Below, piece by piece: positions 3,097-36,928 of a DNA stretch of 42,087 nucleotides. Source of the DNA: a virus (taxonomy: Duplodnaviria; Heunggongvirae; Uroviricota; Caudoviricetes); IMG/VR virus record IMGVR_UViG_2565956712_000007, one strand, 5' to 3'. A model generated the notes under the pieces. That model saw nothing but the letters and a program-made list of their open reading frames with translations, had not been told where the DNA came from and made no database searches. Both the position numbers and the translations under genes were made by a program. How positions within the stretch are numbered: position 1 is the stretch's first letter; every line of letters begins with the position of its first letter.

Positions 3097-3456
3097 CGTT
3101 TATATGCATAACTACCTCCTGAACAGTAAAGCATTACGCATGATAAACCATTTATGGTTTTTTGTTACCCGATATTATCAATCCAATTCGCGATGGTCAA
3201 AACATATCCACAGCGGTAAGTTTGAGTGTTTTCATTTCCAAAACTTTATACAAAAATATATGCAGTCTGTTATTTTTACGCACAATAAAAACACGATACC
3301 AGCTATTTCGCCATAAATACAATTTCCTTTAATGCTGCCAACAGAGCCTGCAAAACATATAACAGAACACATAAATAACAGGCATAATATAGATTTAATA
3401 ATCTAAGTGCATATAAATATCATTTAAGAAGTTAAGAGCATTATTATAATAACAAT

Positions 3457-3493: not shown

Positions 3494-6469
3494 TTACATT
3501 GACATTAATATAAACATGGCTAATTCATCATAGCGAATTCCGTATCGTCCTCCTGCTTTTTTTACAAGAATCATATTTCCTGTTTTATATTGAGAATAAA
3601 TTTTCTCACCTGTATCAGGATCTGTGCTCTCTTCAGTTATCACCTCTTCATCCCATACGTCAGGCCATTCATCGTAACACCAAAAAGCATATTGCTCAGG
3701 ATTTAAACCATGCTTTCTAAGAATATCCCCTACGGTTTGAGCGCCAACGCCAAAATGATACCTGGACGACTCAATTCCTTTGTGATTAATTGAGTCATTA
3801 AATTTAAATTTATAGATGACTGACTTTATTTCAATAGCGGCATCACGCTCTGCATTAAGAATATCATATCTTGTTTTAAGAGTTTCATCTGATGTATTGA
3901 TTGACCCGGTTCCTGCATAGATAACAGAGCATCTGTTTGATGGCTGTCCAATAGCTTTAACATTATCATCAACAGGAGCTATTTTATTAGCATCTGCCAA
4001 CCACCAGTCTGTTCCATCAGCGTGACCGACTCTTACTCTTATCCCACTTCTAATATTTAAACTTCCGGTATTACTCTGTAAATTACAATCTCCTGACGTT
4101 GGTCCAAGCAGTACAGTTTTACCAACACCACATACTACTCTGGCATTTCCTTTTTGTGATACGAGTCTTGACTCACCTCCCGACTGCTCAGGAAGAGATT
4201 TATGGTCTATAAATGCATCGCGGGGGTTAAATACACCGTCTCCAGAATTATATCTTCCTCCTGTATAGTTGTTAAATACAGGACCCCAGTCAACGCCATT
4301 GCCTTCAGAGCACCCGACCATTCTAAGCACTCGTGTATTCCCTGCTGCATATGGTAATGAGCTTGTTGATTGCCGGGAAGCTATCATACGTGCTCCATAA
4401 CCAATAGCATTACCACCATTTATAGTTACATATGCTTGCTGGCTTTCGAAATATGTACTGTAAAAGTTCATATTTCCACAGTCATGCAGATGAATAAGAA
4501 CATCATCCCATCCCTGAATGGTTCCTGCATGTACCTGTACACCGCGAACTGGTTCCCCTGAAACCTCCATACACTCTGATGGCCGGCTGAATGGCTGAGA
4601 CAGGTATTGCGATGTGGCAAGCAGATGTGTGTGGTGATACAGGCTGGTAATGTAGCAATCGAAAAATTGCGTTCCCGCCATACCAAAGTTATCTATGTCA
4701 TTTCGCCGTATAGTAGAACCTACTGTTGCCTCAGAAGCGTTAGACACTCCAGTAAATACTAACTTATCACCGGATACGGATAATCCTGAATAAGTGAAAT
4801 TCCTGCCTCCAGATCTTAAAACCCCGGACGTTTCGAAGGTGTGGCTTGCTGACCATGGGATTTCGATGGTGCTGGACGTTACCGCTGTAATTCGGAATAC
4901 ATCATGGGCGCGGATCGAAACCCCCTTGAATCCCTGGAATCTACAGTGATAATAGTTTTCATCCTCGCCCTGAGCAGCCAGCGTGCCAGATACAGGAATG
5001 TTCGTTTTTAAAAGTGCCGTCTTGCGCCAGTATCCAACCACCTGCAAATTGCGGTATTCATTGCCAAAAGACGCACGTGACCAAATACCTACATCCCACT
5101 CATCGCCAAGACCGGTATTTGCAATGTCTTTATAACCATCCAGACCATTGAAATATGGAACAATACGAAAGTTCTCAAGGCGAACACATCCTGTCTCTGG
5201 CATCAATATTGCGGCAGAGAATGGTTTAAGCGTGGCTCTTGTAGCCCCATTAGCATCACCGTTAGTAAAATCCAATAAATCATATGATGACGCAGGTGCC
5301 GTTGTTGTATACGGGTCTTCGGAAGATGGATTAGAAACCACACCACCACTAACATCCATATTAGAAACACAATCTACAGTATATTTTTTATTTCCTACCC
5401 CGTACATCAGGAATGTGGTCCCTGTGGTAATATCAGGAGCAAATGTTGCAGTATATCCAGAGACCCATTTGCCCACACCAAGACCAATTATCCCACCACC
5501 AGAAACAGGTGTTAACGTATCCGTTATTACATACGCATTATCAGTACCATAAATAACCTTTCCTGTGTTAAGGGCAGCTTGCCACGCGGCCCAGTCTATT
5601 GACTGAGATAATGAGTCAACAAAAGGATATAAGGATTTTGCTTCAGAAATTGAAGAAAACCTCTCAGATAATGGATGATATTTCCCATCCCCAATTGCTC
5701 CGAATTGTTTTACATTTAAGAAAAGAGCATTGTTTTCATGCTGAGTTATAGTTACAGCCCCGGCAAATGGCTGCCTTACACCAATTAATGCATCACCTTT
5801 TCCTTCTCCTGCGCTAGATAATTGCAGAAGAACATCTGCGGCACTGCCAGAAGGCACAGGTACACCTATAGGTTTACCATTGACGATACCAATGACAGTT
5901 TCTTCCAGTAAATGAACTGGAGGAAGTGGTTCAATAAAATTATCTGGAACCCGTAATGTCCTGTTAATATTCACATTAACAATATTATCAACATAATTCT
6001 TTGTAGCTGCATCTTGAGGCTTGGAAGGATCGCGCAAATTGCGGATGTAATTATTCAAAGCATCGTAATAGTTTGCCACAAATGATGGTTTGCGCAGCGC
6101 CAGGCTAAACCAACTGCGGACTTGCTGTATCAGCATCGTCAGCTTATCTAACGCGTCTTCATGCACCTCAGCGAAAAACTTTCCCTGATTTCGCAGATCA
6201 GTTTCCTGCGTAACCGGTAGCTCTCGTGATATAGAAATCTGATAACCGTTAGCTAACGCCTTCGACAGAATTACATTACCGCCATTATATCCACCAGCCC
6301 CTGTGACAGTGTAATCAGTATCAAGAGCCAGCACAGCGATATTTTCGTCAAGGTCAACCACCTGTACTGCCAGATCAGATTCCTTGAAAACCCTAAAGGT
6401 ATACGGAAATGATGTCGTAACGCCGTTACCTGTGTATTCGTTGTGGTCAACTTCGGTTGAGACCGTCAT
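3494..6469 (-). CDS. Tailspike / tail fibre (991 aa): T7-type N-terminal attachment domain, central depolymerase-like body, C-terminal chaperone-like domain
   Basis: N-terminus GNGVTTSFPYTF...LDTDYTV pattern; C-terminal ...YKFKFND...GIRYDELAMFIL; GGAGA RBS. Confidence 0.8.
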   Translation of the reverse strand: MTVSTEVDHNEYTGNGVTTSFPYTFRVFKESDLAVQVVDLDENIAVLALDTDYTVTGAGGYNGGNVILSKALANGYQISISRELPVTQETDLRNQGKFFAEVHEDALDKLTMLIQQVRSWFSLALRKPSFVANYYDALNNYIRNLRDPSKPQDAATKNYVDNIVNVNINRTLRVPDNFIEPLPPVHLLEETVIGIVNGKPIGVPVPSGSAADVLLQLSSAGEGKGDALIGVRQPFAGAVTITQHENNALFLNVKQFGAIGDGKYHPLSERFSSISEAKSLYPFVDSLSQSIDWAAWQAALNTGKVIYGTDNAYVITDTLTPVSGGGIIGLGVGKWVSGYTATFAPDITTGTTFLMYGVGNKKYTVDCVSNMDVSGGVVSNPSSEDPYTTTAPASSYDLLDFTNGDANGATRATLKPFSAAILMPETGCVRLENFRIVPYFNGLDGYKDIANTGLGDEWDVGIWSRASFGNEYRNLQVVGYWRKTALLKTNIPVSGTLAAQGEDENYYHCRFQGFKGVSIRAHDVFRITAVTSSTIEIPWSASHTFETSGVLRSGGRNFTYSGLSVSGDKLVFTGVSNASEATVGSTIRRNDIDNFGMAGTQFFDCYITSLYHHTHLLATSQYLSQPFSRPSECMEVSGEPVRGVQVHAGTIQGWDDVLIHLHDCGNMNFYSTYFESQQAYVTINGGNAIGYGARMIASRQSTSSLPYAAGNTRVLRMVGCSEGNGVDWGPVFNNYTGGRYNSGDGVFNPRDAFIDHKSLPEQSGGESRLVSQKGNARVVCGVGKTVLLGPTSGDCNLQSNTGSLNIRSGIRVRVGHADGTDWWLADANKIAPVDDNVKAIGQPSNRCSVIYAGTGSINTSDETLKTRYDILNAERDAAIEIKSVIYKFKFNDSINHKGIESSRYHFGVGAQTVGDILRKHGLNPEQYAFWCYDEWPDVWDEEVITEESTDPDTGEKIYSQYKTGNMILVKKAGGRYGIRYDELAMFILMSM

Positions 6470-6572: not shown

Positions 6573-6589
6573 ATTACCTTTCAGGTAAT
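6573..6589. promoter_or_regulatory. Operator-like site ATTACC-TTTCA-GGTAAT
   Basis: Perfect 6-bp inverted half-sites, 5-bp spacer; member of a 14-copy family. Confidence 0.6.
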
Positions 6590-6929: not shown

Positions 6930-6945
6930 GGCCGCAAGAGCGGCC
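6930..6945. terminator. Hairpin terminator GGCCGC-AAGA-GCGGCC between convergent genes
   Basis: Perfect 6-bp GC stem, 4-nt loop, T-rich flanks. Confidence 0.6.
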
Positions 6946-7673
6946 TATCGTTTCGCTTTGTGCTCATCCCAGCACGTTTTGCACCATGCCATTAAGCCGT
7001 CCGCATTTTGATTATTAGGGTAAAAGCTGGTTCGTTTTCTGCGGACATTACAAATTGGGCACCACTTCATATGGCGTGTATTCTTTGGGCCATCGAGACA
7101 CCTTGCACACCATTTAGTCAATCCATCTGGATTTTTTGACGATTTCCTGAATTTTTCATATGGAAGGTTTATTCTGCATCGCAAGCACTGCTTGCTACCA
7201 CTTGAAACTCTGTTAGCTGATTCTTCTTTTGGCGGCGATACAGAAGGTATTCTTGCTGGCTCTGATATTGCCTGAGGTGCTTTTTTAGATGACTGAGACG
7301 ATATGTCATCACCAGGGAATCTTCCATGATATGCCGGACGCGTTGACACTCCAGGTGGAATCTCAGCTGTAAACGGCTTTGGCTGAATCAGTTGCCTCTC
7401 TTTTGCTAACTCCTGCTGTTTATAATATGTCTGGATTACCGCACTATCATAAGCAGGAGGTGCGGAAATATTAGGCGCATTACCTCCAGTTTTTTGAAAC
7501 TGAGTAGAGGTGTGTTCTATCACCTGTGTACGATTAATCGTTATCTCCCCATCTTCGGTCTTTATCGTTTTGTTATGATTAACGACCGTACGATCAGAGA
7601 TCTTAGTCTTGTTCTGGTTGATAACGTAAATAATCACCGCAACCACACCAACAACTATCCAGAAAACTTCCAT
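6945..7673 (-). CDS. Membrane-anchored protein with duplicated Cys-rich (zinc-finger-like) C-terminal repeats; moron
   Basis: N-terminal TM helix; two C-x2-C ... W-C-x2-C repeats; operator-like site in its upstream region. Confidence 0.55.
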   Translation of the reverse strand: MEVFWIVVGVVAVIIYVINQNKTKISDRTVVNHNKTIKTEDGEITINRTQVIEHTSTQFQKTGGNAPNISAPPAYDSAVIQTYYKQQELAKERQLIQPKPFTAEIPPGVSTRPAYHGRFPGDDISSQSSKKAPQAISEPARIPSVSPPKEESANRVSSGSKQCLRCRINLPYEKFRKSSKNPDGLTKWCARCLDGPKNTRHMKWCPICNVRRKRTSFYPNNQNADGLMAWCKTCWDEHKAKR

Positions 7674-7692
7674 TGCTTTTCCTCACAATAAC

Positions 7693-7709
7693 ATTACCTT
7701 AAAGGTAAT
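7693..7709. promoter_or_regulatory. Operator-like site ATTACC-TTAAA-GGTAAT
   Basis: Perfect inverted half-sites. Confidence 0.6.
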
Positions 7710-7785
7710 ATCTTGCTTTCAGGTGATCAAGCGTTAAACGCAATCAACCAAATACGGTTGATTTTAATGTTTCTTCGCGCTTATC

Positions 7786-7802
7786 ATTACCTTTACGGTA
7801 AA
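7786..7802. promoter_or_regulatory. Operator-like site ATTACC-TTTAC-GGTAAA
   Basis: One mismatch to consensus; next to TTTACA -35-like hexamer. Confidence 0.5.
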
Positions 7803-7894
7803 TTTACATCGCACTCCTCTTGTGCCATAGTAATCGGGCACTGGCAAAATCCAGTGCCGGGATTGGCGTCCCGGATTACTACAGAGGCACATAT

Positions 7895-7915
7895 GCCGCA
7901 TAAGCGGTTTTTTTT
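7895..7915 (+). terminator. Intrinsic terminator in the ant leader
   Basis: Short GC stem GCCGC-ATAA-GCGG followed by T8. Confidence 0.5.
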
Positions 7916-8068
7916 ATGTGTAAAGCGCACCTATTCTATGGTGGGCTGTGTGGGGGCACCGAAAGGTGCGCCGGGTCCTTTGTAGCCGGTTACGCCAACC
8001 CTGCACAGTTCACCACCAACCGATTGGCGTCGGTAGTGGTGATTAACCTAACTACAAAGGTGATCACT

Positions 8069-8755
8069 ATGACTGCTAACGTAACCCCATCTGTTTTTCA
8101 TTTTGAATCAGAAGCAACCATTCGAGCCATTGTTATTGATGGAAATCCTTGGTTTGTTGCCAAAGACGTTATTAAAGCTCTTCAACTGACAAACCCCACT
8201 ATGTCAATAAAATCTCTTGATGATGATGAAAGGGCTAAATTTAACTTAGGCCGTCAAGGCGAAACCAATATTATCAACGAGTCAGGCCTCTACACACTGA
8301 TCCTCCGCTGCCGCGATGCGGTGACACCAGGCACTATCCCATACCGCTTTCGTAAATGGGTTACAGGTGAGGTTCTTCCTCAGATCCGCCGCACCGGAAG
8401 TTACATTAAAAACTCGCTCCCGCAAGAAGAACGCATAAAGATGGTTGCCGACCAGGTAGCCAACGCCACGGCGTCAGCAGTAATGCAGGCAATGAAGGTA
8501 GAGAACAAAACCTACAGCGCCCCACTGAAGCCCGGCTACCGCAGCCTGATTCATTCGCCGTCTGGTGTTCTCGGCCTGACAGAGAACTCACTGCTGATGA
8601 ATCTGCTGAACCAGTTACAGGACGACGGGCACGACGTATCGGGCGCGGCGGCGGAGCTGACCACCATGTTCTGCTACATCGTCGGTGTGAGCAAATGCCT
8701 GCGTGATATCCAGACCCACGCGGAGTACATCAACGACAAGGCAGGGTTCTTCTGA
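8069..8755 (+). CDS. Antirepressor, Bro-N-type N-terminal domain (Ant1)
   Basis: N-terminus FHFESEATIRAIVIDGNPWFVAKDV; RBS AAGGTGA; C-terminal 77 aa near-identical to Ant2. Track start 7916 is likely too far upstream. Confidence 0.8.
   Translation: MTANVTPSVFHFESEATIRAIVIDGNPWFVAKDVIKALQLTNPTMSIKSLDDDERAKFNLGRQGETNIINESGLYTLILRCRDAVTPGTIPYRFRKWVTGEVLPQIRRTGSYIKNSLPQEERIKMVADQVANATASAVMQAMKVENKTYSAPLKPGYRSLIHSPSGVLGLTENSLLMNLLNQLQDDGHDVSGAAAELTTMFCYIVGVSKCLRDIQTHAEYINDKAGFF
8522..8755 (+). repeat. Inverted repeat arm A (234 bp, about 96% identical to arm B)
   Basis: Encodes C-terminal 77 aa of Ant1; about 10 mismatches to the reverse complement of 9618..9851. Confidence 0.85.
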
Positions 8756-8825: not shown

Positions 8826-8842
8826 ATTACCTTAAAGGTAAA
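8826..8842. promoter_or_regulatory. Operator-like site ATTACC-TTAAA-GGTAAA
   Basis: One mismatch; directly upstream of an AAGGAGG RBS. Confidence 0.55.
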
Positions 8843-8853
8843 GGAGGCGCGAT

Positions 8854-9021
8854 ATGACAGCGTTGAAAAATCGTACTCAGCACAATGAACAAGCCAAGCA
8901 ATGCTGGGATGTCATTGGAAAAGTTATGCTTGGCCGCGCAAGCAAAGAGCGCGACAAGGATATGGTTTACCAGACAGGAACATCTTTCAGCGACTTCAAG
9001 GCGGCATTTCGCTCCAAATAG
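8854..9021 (+). CDS. Small protein (55 aa), hypothetical; first gene of cassette
   Basis: AAGGAGG RBS 6 nt before ATG; not in ORF track (under 60 aa); opposite-strand track ORF 8827..9027 has no RBS. Confidence 0.5.
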   Translation: MTALKNRTQHNEQAKQCWDVIGKVMLGRASKERDKDMVYQTGTSFSDFKAAFRSK

Positions 9022-9041: not shown

Positions 9042-9482
9042 TTGAAGTTTAACATTAGAATATCTAATAGTTTTCTAAATGGGGAAAGCAACACCCCTTT
9101 CGCTGTAGACGGACCTTTCCTTACTGACGATGAAATAAAAATCATACAAAGGTTTTTAGAAGATGTTGCCAATGGAAGGGCGCTTGTTGGAAAAAACAAG
9201 CCATCGTGGGTTAATGATAACCATGATAAAATTCCCGGCTCAGACAATTATGAGCAAGAGAATTATTGGCATTATCATTGTGGGCCAACATGGTATCCAA
9301 ACACATTTAAGAATTATACCATTAACTTAAATTTCAACCCTGGCGGAATGCATTCTAATGAATGCATTCATTATGCAAAAAATGATAATGAAATTGTCGT
9401 TGTTGGATTTTCAAGAGAACACATACCTTTCCTTTCATCAGATGGAAACGACAATCCGCTTTTTTATGATGAAGAAGAATAG
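9042..9482 (+). CDS. AT-rich hypothetical protein (146 aa, TTG start); moron, function unknown
   Basis: AGGAG RBS 6 nt before TTG; visibly AT-rich versus flanks; strong terminator after stop. Confidence 0.5.
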   Translation: MKFNIRISNSFLNGESNTPFAVDGPFLTDDEIKIIQRFLEDVANGRALVGKNKPSWVNDNHDKIPGSDNYEQENYWHYHCGPTWYPNTFKNYTINLNFNPGGMHSNECIHYAKNDNEIVVVGFSREHIPFLSSDGNDNPLFYDEEE

Positions 9483-9617: not shown

Positions 9618-9851
9618 TCAGAAGAACCCTGCCTTGTCGTTGATGTACTCCGCGTGCGTCTGGATATCACGCAGGCATTTGCTCACACCAACGATGTAGC
9701 AGAACATGGTTGTCAGCTCCGCCGCCGCGCCCGATACATCATGCCCGTCTTCCTGTAACTGGTTCAGCAGATTCATCAGCAGTGAGTGCTCCGTCAGGCC
9801 GAGAACACCAGACGGAGAATGAATCAGGCTGCGGTAGCCGGGCTTCAGCGG
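9618..9851 (-). repeat. Inverted repeat arm B (234 bp)
   Basis: Encodes C-terminal 77 aa of Ant2; reverse complement matches 8522..8755. Confidence 0.85.
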
Positions 9852-10556
9852 ATAACCATAACATTTTGTCTGTGTTTTAATTGCCTCACGAAGCGCATCT
9901 AACATCTTGACTGCCACTTCATCATTCTCTGATGCAGATCCAGCAGGGAGATACTCCCCTTCAAGCGGAACCCGAGCAACAAGAGACAACGCTTCGGCGA
10001 ATTGATCTTCATCAATTTCTTTGTACGAACAGCCAAAATGAGATTTCAGTGACGACCACATGGTGATCATCGCCTTAGCCTGTTTTTCTTTTGGCAGAGA
10101 CTGACCGCGACTCATGACGAGTTGTTTAATGGCTTCCTGCTGTTCAGTGGTGATTTTACCCGGCAACGCCTTTTTAGCTTTGCGTGGGTTAACTACATGG
10201 CCTTTAGTCCAGTAATCGTAGAGCACATCGTCACACTCTTCCTGATACTGGATTACCTTGTCGCGGATTTCAGGGCGTACTTTGTTTGGACTGATGCTGT
10301 TCAACCAAGCTGCCAATTTTCGTAAAGCCATACAAATCATGGCTTGCACCCCACCGGCAGAAGGTATGGTGATTTCCACCATACCCTTCGAGAAGCGTTG
10401 AGAAATCTTCTTATGTTGAGATTTCCAGTCTAGCCCCATTCCCTCAACGATAGGTTTCATTGGGGTATACGGTTCACCGTTGTGATTGACAACATAAAGC
10501 TCTGCGCCGTGGAATGGCACGTTGATAGTAGATACCGCTGTTGCTATACTCGTCAT
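9618..10556 (-). CDS. Antirepressor, P22 Ant-type N-terminal domain (Ant2)
   Basis: N-terminus VPFHGAELYVVNHNGEPYTPMKPIVEGMGLDW; downstream of arc-like gene as in P22 immI. Confidence 0.8.
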   Translation of the reverse strand: MTSIATAVSTINVPFHGAELYVVNHNGEPYTPMKPIVEGMGLDWKSQHKKISQRFSKGMVEITIPSAGGVQAMICMALRKLAAWLNSISPNKVRPEIRDKVIQYQEECDDVLYDYWTKGHVVNPRKAKKALPGKITTEQQEAIKQLVMSRGQSLPKEKQAKAMITMWSSLKSHFGCSYKEIDEDQFAEALSLVARVPLEGEYLPAGSASENDEVAVKMLDALREAIKTQTKCYGYPLKPGYRSLIHSPSGVLGLTEHSLLMNLLNQLQEDGHDVSGAAAELTTMFCYIVGVSKCLRDIQTHAEYINDKAGFF

Positions 10557-10628
10557 GTCGTTAATTCCTATACGTAGTTTTACGATACTGAAGCCCTGAC
10601 GGTCTGGCCACCGTTGGGCTTCGCTGTT

Positions 10629-27385: not shown

Positions 27386-27462
27386 GTGGCATTAGCTCAG
27401 TTGGACAGAGCAACCGCCTTCTAAGCGGTTGGTCGCAGGTTCGAATCCTGCATGCCACGCCA
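27386..27462 (+). tRNA. tRNA-Arg (anticodon UCU)
   Basis: Hand-folded cloverleaf: 7-bp acceptor GTGGCAT/ATGCCAC, D-stem GCTC/GAGC, anticodon stem ACCGC/GCGGT with loop CTTCTAA, T-arm GCAGG-TTCGAAT-CCTGC, discriminator G, encoded CCA. Confidence 0.85.
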
Positions 27463-36343: not shown

Positions 36344-36928
36344 ATGAAAAGTATCCAGGACGTCCGCAGGCAAAATCTCAACGACTTGATCGACCGTGAA
36401 TTCAATGGTGTTCAGACGCGGATGGCTGAAAAACTTGGAACTCAGGCAAATCTGGTAAACCGCTGGGCTCTTGGTAAGAAGGTTATCGGCGATCAGGTTG
36501 CGCGAAAAATTGAAGCTGCCGCCAATAAACCCCGTAACTGGCTTGATATCGATCGCTCGCTTTCTCAGGAAGGTTTTCAGCCTGTCGGCCCAAGCGACAT
36601 TGGCCAGCTGGCGGCTCACAACCTGGAACGCTGGATGAGCGAAAGCCGCGACCTTTCAACACAGGGAAAACTTCACCGCGCATCCGGCGTCGCCCAGGTG
36701 ACAATCAGCCGCCTGTTAAACAATGAGGTCAGCGTTTCCATTTCCACCCTGGAGAATGTTGCATCCGCATTCGGGCGTCACGGCTATGAATTACTGATTC
36801 ACCCGCACGACCCTGCGACCATCAACTATGATCGCTCGCGCTACGCATTGTTACCCGAAACCGAGAAAGCAAAGATCGAAAGTTACATTGAATTTGTCAT
36901 CAACCAGAACGAAAAAAACAAACAATAA
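36344..36928 (+). CDS. Prophage repressor, cI-position, HTH (XRE-type) without recognisable S24 autocleavage domain
   Basis: HTH motif TRMAEKLGTQANLVNRWALGKK plus second HTH-like segment; flanked by OR-like and OL-like operator clusters. Confidence 0.7.
   Translation: MKSIQDVRRQNLNDLIDREFNGVQTRMAEKLGTQANLVNRWALGKKVIGDQVARKIEAAANKPRNWLDIDRSLSQEGFQPVGPSDIGQLAAHNLERWMSESRDLSTQGKLHRASGVAQVTISRLLNNEVSVSISTLENVASAFGRHGYELLIHPHDPATINYDRSRYALLPETEKAKIESYIEFVINQNEKNKQ

Follow-up and report, generated by a model that had tools for sequence, protein, structure and literature searches.

The immI region of phages P1 and P7 is among the closest described systems to the locus analysed here. It comprises the operator Oc4/Op51, the promoters P51a/b, the sites a1 and b1, c4, a second pair of sites (a2 and b2), icd, and ant1/2 (Citron and Schuster, 1990; NC_005856). 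Another is the isrK-orf45-anrP-isrJ locus of Salmonella Gifsy-1, where IsrK has been detected by Northern blot, its terminator is read through, and a processed RNA of ~80 nt (STnc1160) is located where C4 lies (Hershko-Shalev et al., 2016; PMC4825925). Translation of anrP rises ~140-fold when IsrK is supplied in trans, and the pairing of IsrK with the C4 region has been confirmed by compensatory mutations (PMC4825925). Expression of both IsrK and STnc1160 is high in lysogens of Gifsy-1 (PMC7067206). In the literature searched, the functional papers found on the Gifsy-1 locus do not describe it as a P1-type c4 system.

In phage P4, whose immunity region comprises seqA, the CI RNA and seqC, CI acts through premature transcription termination and controls replication genes. 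P4 seqA has been regarded as a structural homologue of IsrK by the Gifsy-1 authors (PMC4825925). In the APSE phages of Hamiltonella defensa, the GenBank record of APSE-7 (LR794151) annotates isrK, C4, a′, b′ and BRO in that order, and its authors suggest that C4 has a further target, within the DNA polymerase gene (Rouil et al., 2020; PMC7313666). The sar RNA of phage P22 (RF00262), like C4, is a temperate-phage antisense RNA that restricts antirepressor production, but the two differ in fold and family.

The ant1 leader compared with described systems

The stretch of DNA analysed here (IMG/VR record IMGVR_UViG_2565956712_000007; 42,087 nt, hereafter the window) is an integrated prophage of a TL-2011b/phiV10-like podovirus. 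The 350-bp leader of its ant1 gene contains genes for the IsrK and C4 antisense RNAs, both already catalogued, and holds no new attenuator. We consider it highly probable (roughly 85%) that an antisense circuit of the P1 immI type is present here as an unannotated copy, in the version represented by the Gifsy-1 isrK locus. A first-pass annotation had suggested an RNA-level switch ahead of ant1. The stretch is indeed non-coding and RNA-structured, with IsrK and C4 both above their Rfam gathering scores, in keeping with control of ant1 at the RNA level. It is a real RNA switch but a copy of a known system, and our analysis leaves the kind of system unchanged. The features of the region, whose family membership, structures, box complementarity and co-variation were established computationally for the window, are as follows:

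7694..7708, no strand assigned: operator-like palindrome TTACCTTAAAGGTAA, an exact TTACC-N5-GGTAA in the divergent promoter region adjoining the minus-strand gene at 6945-7673
7787..7801, no strand assigned: operator-like palindrome TTACCTTTACGGTAA (TTACC-N5-GGTAA), separated by a single base from the downstream -35 hexamer of the IsrK promoter
7803..7831, plus strand: predicted sigma-70-type promoter, with TTTACA (7803-7808), a 17-nt spacer, CATAGT (7826-7831) and a TG (TG-c) before the -10
7838..7915, plus strand: IsrK-family small RNA, the a1/b1 leader of the C4 system (Rfam RF01394, fold and covariation)
7863..7869, plus strand: box a1 (TTGGCGT), within IsrK hairpin 2 (loop and 3′ side), complementary to a′
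7879..7887, plus strand: box b1 (CTACAGAGG), in the IsrK linker, 9 nt complementary to loop b′ including one G-U
7887..7921, plus strand: predicted terminator-clamping helix in read-through transcripts, 7887-7893 with 7915-7921 (CACAU/AUGUG)
7934..8020, plus strand: C4 antisense RNA gene (Rfam RF01695, fold and covariation)
7977..7985, plus strand: box b′ (CCTTTGTAG), in the loop of C4 hairpin b, the specificity determinant
7992..7998, plus strand: box a′ (ACGCCAA), in the single-stranded junction of C4, unpaired in the Rfam consensus and complementary to a1 and a2
8010..8042, plus strand: leader hairpin, 8010-8016 with 8036-8042 and 8020-8023 with 8030-8033, a2 in its loop
8024..8030, plus strand: box a2 (TTGGCGT), in the loop of the leader hairpin, complementary to a′
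8052..8060, plus strand: box b2 (CTACAAAGG), overlapping the ant1 Shine-Dalgarno AAGGTGA (8057-8063), the predicted site of translational repression by C4
8069..8755, plus strand: ant1, the regulated gene, encoding a 228-aa Bro-N domain antirepressor-type protein

The ant1 product matches Pfam Bro-N (E = 5.6e-20), and in RefSeq the same CDS, starting at 8069, is a BRO-N domain-containing protein. Related phages have homologues that are listed as anti-repressor or anti-immunity proteins, which suggests that the product is an antirepressor.

The order of elements in the window (operator, promoter, a1/b1, c4, a2/b2 and antirepressor gene) is that of P1 immI. In both, C4 has the same fold, with b′ in a hairpin loop and a′ in a junction, and an RNA of 77-78 nt lies between two copies of the target boxes, which are separated by 7 nt (a1-b1) and 22 nt (a2-b2) in P1 and by 9 and 21 nt in the window. 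Both also place b2 on the ribosome-binding site of the first downstream gene, have an antirepressor as the regulated product, and carry a terminator-like hairpin and U-run between b1 and c4, together with a clamping helix (CGGACA/TGTCCG in P1). A repressor operator stands at the promoter in P1 and an operator-like palindrome (7787-7801) does so in the window, at the position of Oc4 (Op51). The two regions differ in box a′, which is CUGUCAA in P1 (target TTGACAG) and ACGCCAA in the window. There is no icd in the window, so that b2 lies directly on the ant1 Shine-Dalgarno, unlike in P1. The antirepressor is a Bro-N protein rather than Ant1/2, one promoter is predicted rather than two, and the operator-like site is a TTACC-N5-GGTAA palindrome, whereas the C1 site of P1 is asymmetric. 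The window phage is an integrated podovirus prophage and P1 a plasmid prophage. The a1b1 region of P1 scores 51 bits against the c4-a1b1 model (RF03163; Weinberg et al., 2010) and 35 bits against isrK, while the Gifsy-1 locus matches isrK, c4-a1b1 (48.1 bits) and C4 together.

The window shares with Gifsy-1 the same Rfam families and the same order of IsrK, C4 (orf45/STnc1160 in Gifsy-1) and antirepressor gene. In both, the 3′ half of C4 has its complement in hairpin 2 and the linker of IsrK, and the operon runs from the IsrK promoter and requires read-through of the terminator. IsrK heads an operon that continues through the C4 region into the antirepressor gene, with order and strand as in Gifsy-1. 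The two have different b boxes (with UCGGUGAU in the Gifsy-1 loop), isrJ follows downstream only in Gifsy-1, and the upstream neighbour is a minus-strand gene in the window and the Q-like antQ in Gifsy-1. APSE phages, which belong to another phage type (Sendosyvirus) with another host and in which the system is known from annotation, share ~70% identity with the window over the RNA genes, and there too a BRO-N protein gene follows. With P4 immunity the window shares a processed small RNA (predicted here) flanked by upstream and downstream target copies on the same transcript. Unlike in P4, the conserved target in the window overlaps the Shine-Dalgarno before an antirepressor gene, and the region matched the C4 model.

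The promoter, IsrK and C4

The two operator-like sites and the TTTACA hexamer of the first-pass annotation are present, the site at 7694-7708 lying just outside the range that it had given. TTACC-N5-GGTAA occurs 14 times across the window, against 0.69 sites expected by chance, and the palindrome at 7787-7801 is kept as TTACCGCAAAGGTAA in phiV10 and as TTACCAAAATGGTAA in a further locus (L106). An HTH protein encoded at 36344-36928 is a candidate to bind this palindrome. The promoter scan gave a hexamer match of 9/12, and TTGAC/TATA-type hexamers line up across the aligned loci (alignment A1). From the promoter geometry the transcription start is placed at ~7838, the base to which position 1 of the Rfam isrK model aligns. 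A terminator-like inverted repeat was also observed at 7742-7763, upstream of the promoter and within the divergent control region.

IsrK (RF01394) reaches 76.8 bits, where the gathering score is 50, and the match is full-length, with model positions 1-77 aligned to 7838-7914 on the plus strand. The c4-a1b1 model scores 45.1 bits at 7825-7877, where the gathering score is 46.7 (E = 2.8e-10 in a 501-nt search); both hairpins and the a1 box align fully. Hfq binding by IsrK and its activation of antirepressor translation in trans are known only for Gifsy-1. The fold of 7838-7915 has an energy of -27.4 kcal/mol (z = -3.06), and none of 200 shuffles was as good. An intrinsic terminator, recovered by the terminator scan, consists of the stem GCCGC/GCGGU (7895-7908) and a T8 tract (7908-7915) whose U-tract is invariant across the alignment. 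An RNA of ~78 nt (7838-7915) is thus predicted exactly where an RNA of roughly 80 nt ending at the T8 had been proposed.

Conservation was assessed in a sample of 44 phage loci with different b′ loops, mostly enterobacterial; the pattern used to collect them fixes the hairpin-b stem and the a′ core, so those parts are invariant by construction. IsrK helices 1-3 covary among these loci, the terminator helix being 73% paired because of register shifts in the alignment. The arms of the clamping helix also change together, with at least 5 Watson-Crick pairs in 31 of the 44 cognate combinations and in 22% of non-cognate ones.

Hairpin 1 (7837-7844 with 7851-7858, 8 perfect bp, loop CAAAAU), hairpin 2 (7857-7862 with 7869-7874, 6 bp, loop UUGGCG), their 2-nt overlap (7857-7858) and the stem with its T8 tract are all where the first-pass annotation had placed them. 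It had taken the two hairpins to be mutually exclusive, and a cis-acting attenuator could be built on that reading, in which the hairpins are alternatives that decide whether the terminator at 7895-7915 forms. The overlap is real, the terminator does lie between promoter and ant1, and read-through in Gifsy-1 is partial, rising ~8-fold under some conditions (PMC4825925). The hairpins nevertheless coexist as 7 + 6 bp in both the MFE fold and the Rfam consensus, hairpin 1 then spanning 7838-7857 and hairpin 2 7858-7873, followed by a single-stranded linker and the terminator. They are kept at once in the 44 loci (91.5% and 100% paired) with compensatory changes, and neither has a conserved alternative partner in the terminator. 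Such an attenuator is therefore very unlikely; mutual exclusion over-read the overlap, and a switch built on it was rejected. What stands of the attenuator proposal is the terminator itself: downstream expression needs read-through, so an attenuator-like element is present, but the 5′ hairpins are not the switch.

C4 (RF01695) has a score of 79.5 bits (gathering score 45), again over the full model (1-87 = 7934-8020, plus strand). Its predicted fold (-45.2 kcal/mol, z = -3.6), in which the MFE structure agrees with the Rfam consensus, comprises a long closing stem, hairpin a (7956-7969, GCACC-GAAA-GGUGC) and hairpin b (7970-7990). The GNRA-capped stems that had been noted downstream of the terminator are thus present (the GAAA stem at 7956-7969), not as accessory structures but as part of the C4 gene. 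Among the 44 loci both sides change in 9 of the 17 pairs of C4 helix 4 and in all 5 of helix 5; helix 6 is fixed by the search pattern and is hence uninformative for covariation. The structural conservation in related phages that had been named as a check on the RNA proposal is accordingly strong, and it comes with covariation. By alignment to the annotated 77-nt c4 RNA of P1, the mature C4 is predicted at ~7940-8017 (78 nt). Possible signs of processing are the conserved 5′ context AUUAU|GGUGGG and a stem that ends in an acceptor-like CCACC, as in P1.

A protein-coding explanation for the same stretch would extend Ant1 at its N-terminus from ATG 7916, giving a 279-aa form, or would involve a 90-aa ORF at 7713-7985. 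Both ORFs exist, the 7916 frame runs into ant1 without a stop, and some translation of orf45 has been detected in Gifsy-1 (PMC4825925). ATG 7916, however, directly follows the U-tract and has no Shine-Dalgarno, the substitutions between loci are base-pair compensatory rather than codon-like, the frames over the region are not conserved among loci, and the RefSeq CDS starts at 8069. A coding function is extremely unlikely, and both candidates were rejected. The earlier judgement that the leader has no credible ORF also holds for ATG 7938, whose frame meets TAG 7983-7985 after 15 codons, inside loop b′ and 86 nt before ant1.

This frame also bears on whether the window follows the Gifsy-1 model to the letter, with the long transcript locked in an inactive form, IsrK opening the orf45 ribosome-binding site in trans, and ant1 translated only by coupling. 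The model has experimental support in Gifsy-1 (PMC4825925), and the window shares the pairing between the middle of IsrK and the 3′ half of C4 that forms ‘structure A’. In Gifsy-1, however, orf45 runs from the AUGG of the C4 5′ strand to an AUGA at anrP, to which it is coupled; no such AUGA-coupled upstream ORF was found in the window, where the frame ends in loop b′. Among the 37 loci with a locatable C4 AUGG plus Gifsy-1, the AUGA-coupled layout occurs only in Gifsy-1 and two loci (L028 and L116). It is a feature of the Gifsy-1 mechanism rather than of the RNA family. As b2 in the window also lies directly on the ant1 Shine-Dalgarno, we regard strict adherence to the Gifsy-1 model as distinctly improbable.

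The first-pass annotation drew its analogy from P22 sar, which would imply a convergent antisense RNA on the opposite strand across the ant1 ribosome-binding site. A sar-family match does exist in the window, but its sole position is 10558-10625, where it adjoins, and would accompany, the other antirepressor gene (P22_AR_N, 9618-10556, minus strand) and not ant1. RF00262 gave no match in 7650-8150 on either strand at E <= 1, and no match rose above background on the minus strand of that interval. We see next to no likelihood in a sar-like RNA here and rejected the candidate; sar was the wrong family for the analogy, the P1/P7 c4 type being co-transcribed with its target and trans-acting, not encoded opposite it. 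A lysM-TM7 match on the minus strand (7667-7803) scored 19.7 bits (gathering score 61.5; E = 0.34) and was discarded as noise.

Target boxes and their co-variation

Loop b′ (CCUUUGUAG) is complementary both to b2 (CUACAAAGG) and to b1 of IsrK (CUACAGAGG), and b1 therefore mimics the ant1 ribosome-binding site. In the window the b1-b′ pairing amounts to 5 contiguous Watson-Crick pairs, or 9 including G-U, and in the MFE fold of the long transcript b1 is paired with loop b′. Because b1 contains one G-U here, its strength as a decoy is uncertain.

Among phage loci there are 44 distinct b′ loop sequences, each with its own b2 and mostly also with its own b1. The cognate b2 matches b′ over at least 7 Watson-Crick nt in 39 of the 44 loci, as against 54 of 1892 non-cognate combinations (2.9%); for b1 the same holds in 31 of 44, as against 49 of 1892 (2.6%). 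Boxes a′, a1 and a2 show three-way co-variation, with ACGCCAA/TTGGCGT/TTGGCGT in 34 loci and TCGCCAA/TTGGCGA/TTGGCGA in 9. The 3′ end of b2 is 7-11 nt upstream of the start codon in most loci, and b2 overlaps the Shine-Dalgarno in nearly all. These comparative data give modest support for selection on the upstream a1/b1 (IsrK) target copy to pair with C4; the one system in which that pairing has experimental support is Gifsy-1 (PMC4825925).

The leader hairpin, which shares its outer 5′ arm with the C4 closing stem (as the 3′ strand of the latter), is paired in 93.8% of cells, with changes on both sides in 10 of its 11 pairs across the 44 loci. Its covariation score is 0.62 versus 0.21 for shuffles, and slid controls are 31-60% paired. 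When all helices are taken together, 93.6% of cells are paired and 28 of 45 pairs have changed on both sides, slid controls being ~40% paired. Cofolding of C4 with IsrK or with the leader gave a ddG of ~0, favouring neither complex, since the method has no way of representing loop-loop contacts while C4 stays folded. The energies of whole-molecule duplexes were better than those of mononucleotide-shuffled targets except in 4 of 300 cases for IsrK and 13 of 300 for the leader; they describe complete unfolding of C4 and were thus set aside as evidence.

Proposed control of ant1 and distribution of the module

By homology, IsrK and C4 would keep the antirepressor gene silent in the prophage, as in P1 and Salmonella Gifsy-1, and C4 is, by analogy, the actual repressor of ant1. 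The experimental basis lies entirely in these homologues, with C4 repression from P1 and IsrK activation, read-through and processing from Gifsy-1; for the window prophage we infer the transcripts, their start, termination at 7915, processing, repression and decoy action. We propose that the operator-flanked promoter initiates at ~7838 and that most transcripts would end at the U8 terminator (7908-7915), yielding a 78-nt IsrK with the decoy boxes a1 and b1. Read-through transcripts would extend through the C4 gene into ant1, and a C4 of ~78 nt would be excised from them, a cut that RNase P makes in P1. Box a′ of C4 would pair with a2 in the leader hairpin and b′ with b2 on the ant1 Shine-Dalgarno, blocking ribosome binding, so that the Bro-N antirepressor would not be made and lysogeny would be kept. 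IsrK, which carries the same two boxes, may bind C4 either while still part of the precursor (in cis) or as a separate small RNA (in trans); this would relieve the block, and the ratio of IsrK to C4 would thereby set ant1 expression.

C4 could instead act mainly on transcription, as in P4, by pairing with the nascent a1/b1 and a2/b2 and promoting termination at the IsrK terminator or downstream, which would limit its own synthesis as well as transcription of ant1. Rfam clan CL00128 holds both C4 and c4-a1b1, and b1 ends 7 nt short of the terminator stem. C4 of P1 reportedly also causes premature termination downstream, as a consequence of its translational block (Biere et al., 1992). The Gifsy-1 authors, who compare IsrK with P4 seqA, raise the same idea for STnc1160, yet constitutive STnc1160 enhanced rather than reduced the IsrK-mediated effect in Gifsy-1 (PMC4825925). 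The position of b2 over the Shine-Dalgarno in nearly all loci points to translation as the primary target, and no structure that would make termination C4-dependent was identified. A mainly transcriptional role is accordingly unlikely, and we prefer translational repression of ant1 by C4, relieved by IsrK.

A wider reading, which we put forward tentatively as possible but short of probable, joins these elements. In every C4 circuit of the P1 type, the a1/b1 half would be released as an IsrK-type RNA and serve as a dedicated anti-antisense decoy, and the b1/b′/b2 triplet would co-evolve as an immunity ‘address’, of which there are at least 44 here. C4 bound at b1, beside the terminator and clamping helix, may feed back on termination and read-through. 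The whole would form a self-contained RNA toggle for induction that acts directly on the ant1 Shine-Dalgarno, without the upstream-ORF step of Gifsy-1. If true, the decoy and address reading would unify the P1 c4, P4 CI and Gifsy-1 IsrK literatures, and would give a function to the a1/b1 sites of P1, which are labelled ‘putative’ in the P1 GenBank record.

In RefSeq and the phage GenBank records, the RNA stretch upstream of the Bro-N gene carries no annotation; the two RNA genes and their target sites merit annotation ahead of the antirepressor gene in this genome. Of 5426 complete E. coli genomes, 956 carry the module, as do 159-235 phage records, many of which come from Stx-converting phages. 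With the module this common in E. coli genomes and phages, its control of the antirepressor probably matters for how prophages are induced in pathogenic E. coli.

An IsrK–C4 module ahead of ant1

The stretch at 7720–8068 carries a real RNA-level switch on the antirepressor gene ant1, and it is an instance of a known, curated system. An Rfam scan of the whole window at gathering threshold detected IsrK (RF01394) at 7838–7914 (+), scoring 76.8 bits (gathering score 50), and the C4 antisense RNA (RF01695) at 7934–8020 (+), scoring 79.5 bits (gathering score 45). A further, permissive scan found the c4-a1b1 motif (RF03163, ‘a1, b1 targets of C4 antisense RNA’) at 7825–7877, overlapping the 5′ half of IsrK and slightly below its gathering score (45.1 vs. 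46.7 bits). Against dinucleotide shuffles, the fold z-scores are −3.06 for 7838–7915 and −3.6 for 7934–8020. Alignment to the annotated P1 c4 predicts mature C4 at about 7940–8017. The exposed boxes of C4 (a′, b′) and their targets inside IsrK (a1, b1) and ahead of ant1 (a2, b2) are listed below.

Elements of the module
7787–7801: operator palindrome of the TTACC-N5-GGTAA type, TTACCTTTACGGTAA
7803–7831 (+): predicted promoter, TTTACA, 17-nt spacer, TG-preceded CATAGT
7863–7869: a1 box TTGGCGT, within IsrK hairpin 2
7879–7887: b1 box CTACAGAGG, within IsrK linker
7895–7915: terminator, stem plus T8
7977–7985: b′ box CCTTTGTAG, loop of C4 hairpin b
7992–7998: a′ box ACGCCAA, C4 junction
8024–8030: a2 box TTGGCGT, leader-hairpin loop
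8052–8060: b2 box CTACAAAGG, overlapping the Shine-Dalgarno sequence AAGGTGA
8069–8755: ant1, ATG at 8069, Bro-N protein (Pfam)

The features listed in the first-pass annotation were confirmed, except for its claim of mutually exclusive hairpins. The 8-bp (7837–7858) and 6-bp (7857–7874) hairpins, with two bases in common, and the terminator (5-bp GC-rich stem 7895–7908, then T8 at 7908–7915, also detected by a terminator scan) are the three stem-loops of IsrK. Its −35-like TTTACA (7803–7808) is part of the promoter, and its two operator-like sites are the palindrome abutting that hexamer and a second copy at 7694–7708. What it described only as further GNRA-capped stems is the C4 RNA by Rfam match, with a GAAA-capped stem present at 7956–7969.

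Several E. coli chromosomes carry the module at 99.9% identity, and 956 of 5426 complete E. coli genomes contain it. A near-mode search matched 159 phage records and a distant-mode search 235, among them phiV10, TL-2011b, Enterobacter phage Tyrion, many Stx-converting phages, Moraxella and Actinobacillus phages, and APSE. The window itself is a TL-2011b-like prophage (96.8% identity over 83% of the first 25 kb). The RNAs are unannotated in RefSeq and in the phiV10 record; the APSE-7 record annotates IsrK and C4 RNAs with a′ and b′ marked (PMC7313666). The c4 and c4-a1b1 motifs were both defined by Weinberg et al. 2010 (PMC2864571), and a 2025 review handles IsrK and c4 as unrelated items. The databases make their unification visible, but the functional papers searched do not state it outright.

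Covariation and box pairing across phage loci

An IMG/VR pattern scan, with the hairpin-b stem and a′ core fixed and the b′ loop free, yielded at least 120 loci; 44 loci with distinct b′ loops among the matches listed were aligned. The sampled loci are enterobacterial and share descent, and the search pattern itself makes their helix-6 and a′ cores invariant. Structural conservation in related phages, which the first-pass annotation had named as a check, is strong: pairing in the IsrK and C4 helices reaches 93.6%, with compensatory changes, against 38–45% in slid controls, which, like non-cognate controls, partly account for phylogeny. Both sides have changed in 28 of 45 base pairs, and the covariation score is 0.48 vs. 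0.18 in shuffles, which ignore phylogeny. Together with the Rfam families and the box pairing described below, this covariation bears out the suggested RNA-level switch. IsrK hairpins 1 (91.5% paired) and 2 (100%) are both maintained, which rules out the mutually exclusive model as an over-reading.

The loop of IsrK hairpin 1, CAAAAU (7845–7850; CAAAUU in P1), is near-invariant across loci while the stem below covaries freely. No complementary partner for this loop was found, and it may serve to bind Hfq or another protein.

A leader hairpin (8010–8016/8036–8042 and 8020–8023/8030–8033; 93.8% paired, 10 of 11 pairs compensatory) displays a2 in its loop, just as IsrK hairpin 2 displays a1. Its outer 5′ arm doubles as the 3′ side of the stem that closes C4, and precursor and processed RNA must therefore fold differently there.

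The b′ loops are each complementary to a site that lies, in most loci, 7–11 nt upstream of the downstream gene's start codon. Runs of at least seven contiguous Watson-Crick pairs join loop and b2 in 39 of 44 cognate pairs vs. 54 of 1892 non-cognate pairs, and loop and b1 in 31 of 44 vs. 49 of 1892. The a boxes co-vary three ways (a′/a1/a2), as ACGCCAA/TTGGCGT/TTGGCGT in 34 loci and TCGCCAA/TTGGCGA/TTGGCGA in nine; P1 has CUGUCAA/TTGACAG. These sequence comparisons are strong evidence that C4 pairs with both the Shine-Dalgarno region and the IsrK copy of the target.

Two viral contigs contain two C4 matches each. In L036 they lie a few kb apart (4099–4128 and 7358–7387) with different b′ loops (TTTCCGTAC vs. 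ATGTTTCGA); a single phage can thus carry two C4 RNAs of independent specificity. In L081 they lie at 5323–5355 and 6189–6221.

In read-through RNA, a further helix clamps the IsrK terminator, pairing 7887–7893 (just after b1) with 7915–7921 (just after the U-tract). It lies outside the Rfam isrK model and also occurs in P1 (L124, ~3269–3275 with 3314–3320). From locus to locus its two arms vary in concert (CACAU/AUGUG, GCGCA/UGCGC, CGGAC/GUCCG, CGAUAUG/CAUAUCG), with at least five Watson-Crick pairs in 31 of 44 cognate pairs vs. 22% of non-cognate pairs. Candidate roles are a processing site or precursor folding.

Comparison with P1 and Gifsy-1, and proposed regulation

The GenBank record of P1 gives the order Oc4 (Op51), P2c4 and P1c4 promoters, a1, b1, 77-nt c4 RNA, a2, b2, icd, ant1/2, the same order of elements (operator, promoter, a1, b1, C4, a2, b2, antirepressor gene) as in the window. 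In P1, the a1/b1 region scores 51 bits with c4-a1b1 and a sub-threshold 35 bits with isrK, and the isrK match extends over a terminator-like hairpin that has a U-run and lies between b1 and c4. The Salmonella prophage Gifsy-1 matches isrK, c4-a1b1 and C4 together. By these Rfam matches, IsrK is the a1/b1 leader of a P1-type C4 system.

According to the P1 annotation and reviews, C4 of P1/P7 represses icd/ant translation via a2/b2 (Citron & Schuster 1990). In Gifsy-1, the IsrK terminator is partially read through, the long transcript is translationally silent, and an ~80-nt RNA, STnc1160, is processed from it (PMC4825925); its source region is C4 by Rfam match. IsrK in trans raises translation of the antirepressor gene anrP ~140-fold, and its pairing with the STnc1160/C4 region is confirmed by compensatory mutations (PMC4825925). 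IsrK and STnc1160 are abundant in lysogens (PMC7067206).

By analogy with these homologues, transcription from ~7838 would mostly end at 7915, giving IsrK, and read-through would give C4, to be excised from the longer RNA. The C4-excising enzyme of P1 is said to have been identified as RNase P by Hartmann et al. in 1995. C4 would then block the ant1 Shine-Dalgarno sequence, and IsrK, or the a1/b1 segment in cis, would compete for C4 and relieve the block. More tentatively, with perhaps one chance in three of being right, IsrK may serve in general as a C4 decoy, co-evolving with C4 and feeding back on the IsrK terminator.

Upstream-ORF coupling is an alternative to direct occlusion. Gifsy-1 orf45 runs from the AUGG in the 5′ strand of C4 to an AUGA at anrP; in the window this frame halts after 15 codons at TAG 7983–7985, inside loop b′, so that such coupling cannot operate. 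The AUGA-coupled layout occurs only in Gifsy-1, L028 and L116 among the loci compared, and it is simpler to suppose that the ant1 Shine-Dalgarno sequence is occluded directly. When the long transcript is folded, b1 is paired with loop b′ in the minimum-free-energy structure, as in ‘structure A’ of Gifsy-1.

An ATG at 7916, directly 3′ of the U8 tract, is in frame with ant1 without an intervening stop (+51 codons through the C4 gene). It was rejected as the ant1 start, having no Shine-Dalgarno sequence and a frame that varies among loci, and the extension is probably meaningless.

Other features of the prophage

The TTACC-N5-GGTAA palindrome occurs 14 times in the window (11 exact) vs. 0.69 expected, with sites at 6574, 7694, 7787, 8827, 27049, 30242/30260, 33881/33943, 36226/36274 and 36986/37048. 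Scattered and often paired, they are reminiscent of P1 with its dispersed C1 operators. A candidate repressor is the HTH_3 protein encoded between two operator pairs (36344–36928, +). The exact operator TTACCTTAAAGGTAA (8827–8841) stands ahead of two small ORFs between the antirepressor genes, 8854–9021 (55 aa) and 9042–9482 (146 aa), neither with a Pfam match. The divergent neighbour of the IsrK promoter, 6945–7673 (minus strand), is a 242-aa ORF with an N-terminal hydrophobic segment and a Cys-rich C-terminus; its product has a weak, sub-threshold Stc1 match (Pfam) and is hypothetical in the TL-2011b annotation.

The Rfam scan of the window gave no match to isrJ, which is present in Gifsy-1. 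A tRNA-Arg gene (anticodon tct) lies inside the prophage at 27386–27462; Gifsy-1 has one too, ~0.3 kb past isrJ, where the isrK-anrP operon has its 3′ end.

A second antirepressor gene (9618–10556, minus strand; Pfam P22_AR_N) has its start codon abutted by an Rfam sar match (10558–10625, +; 45.2 bits vs. a gathering score of 43). The prophage thus has two convergent antirepressor genes, ant1 with P1-type C4 control and the other with P22-type sar control. Their proteins differ in their N-terminal domains and have a common C-terminal stretch of 101 aa that is 82% identical.
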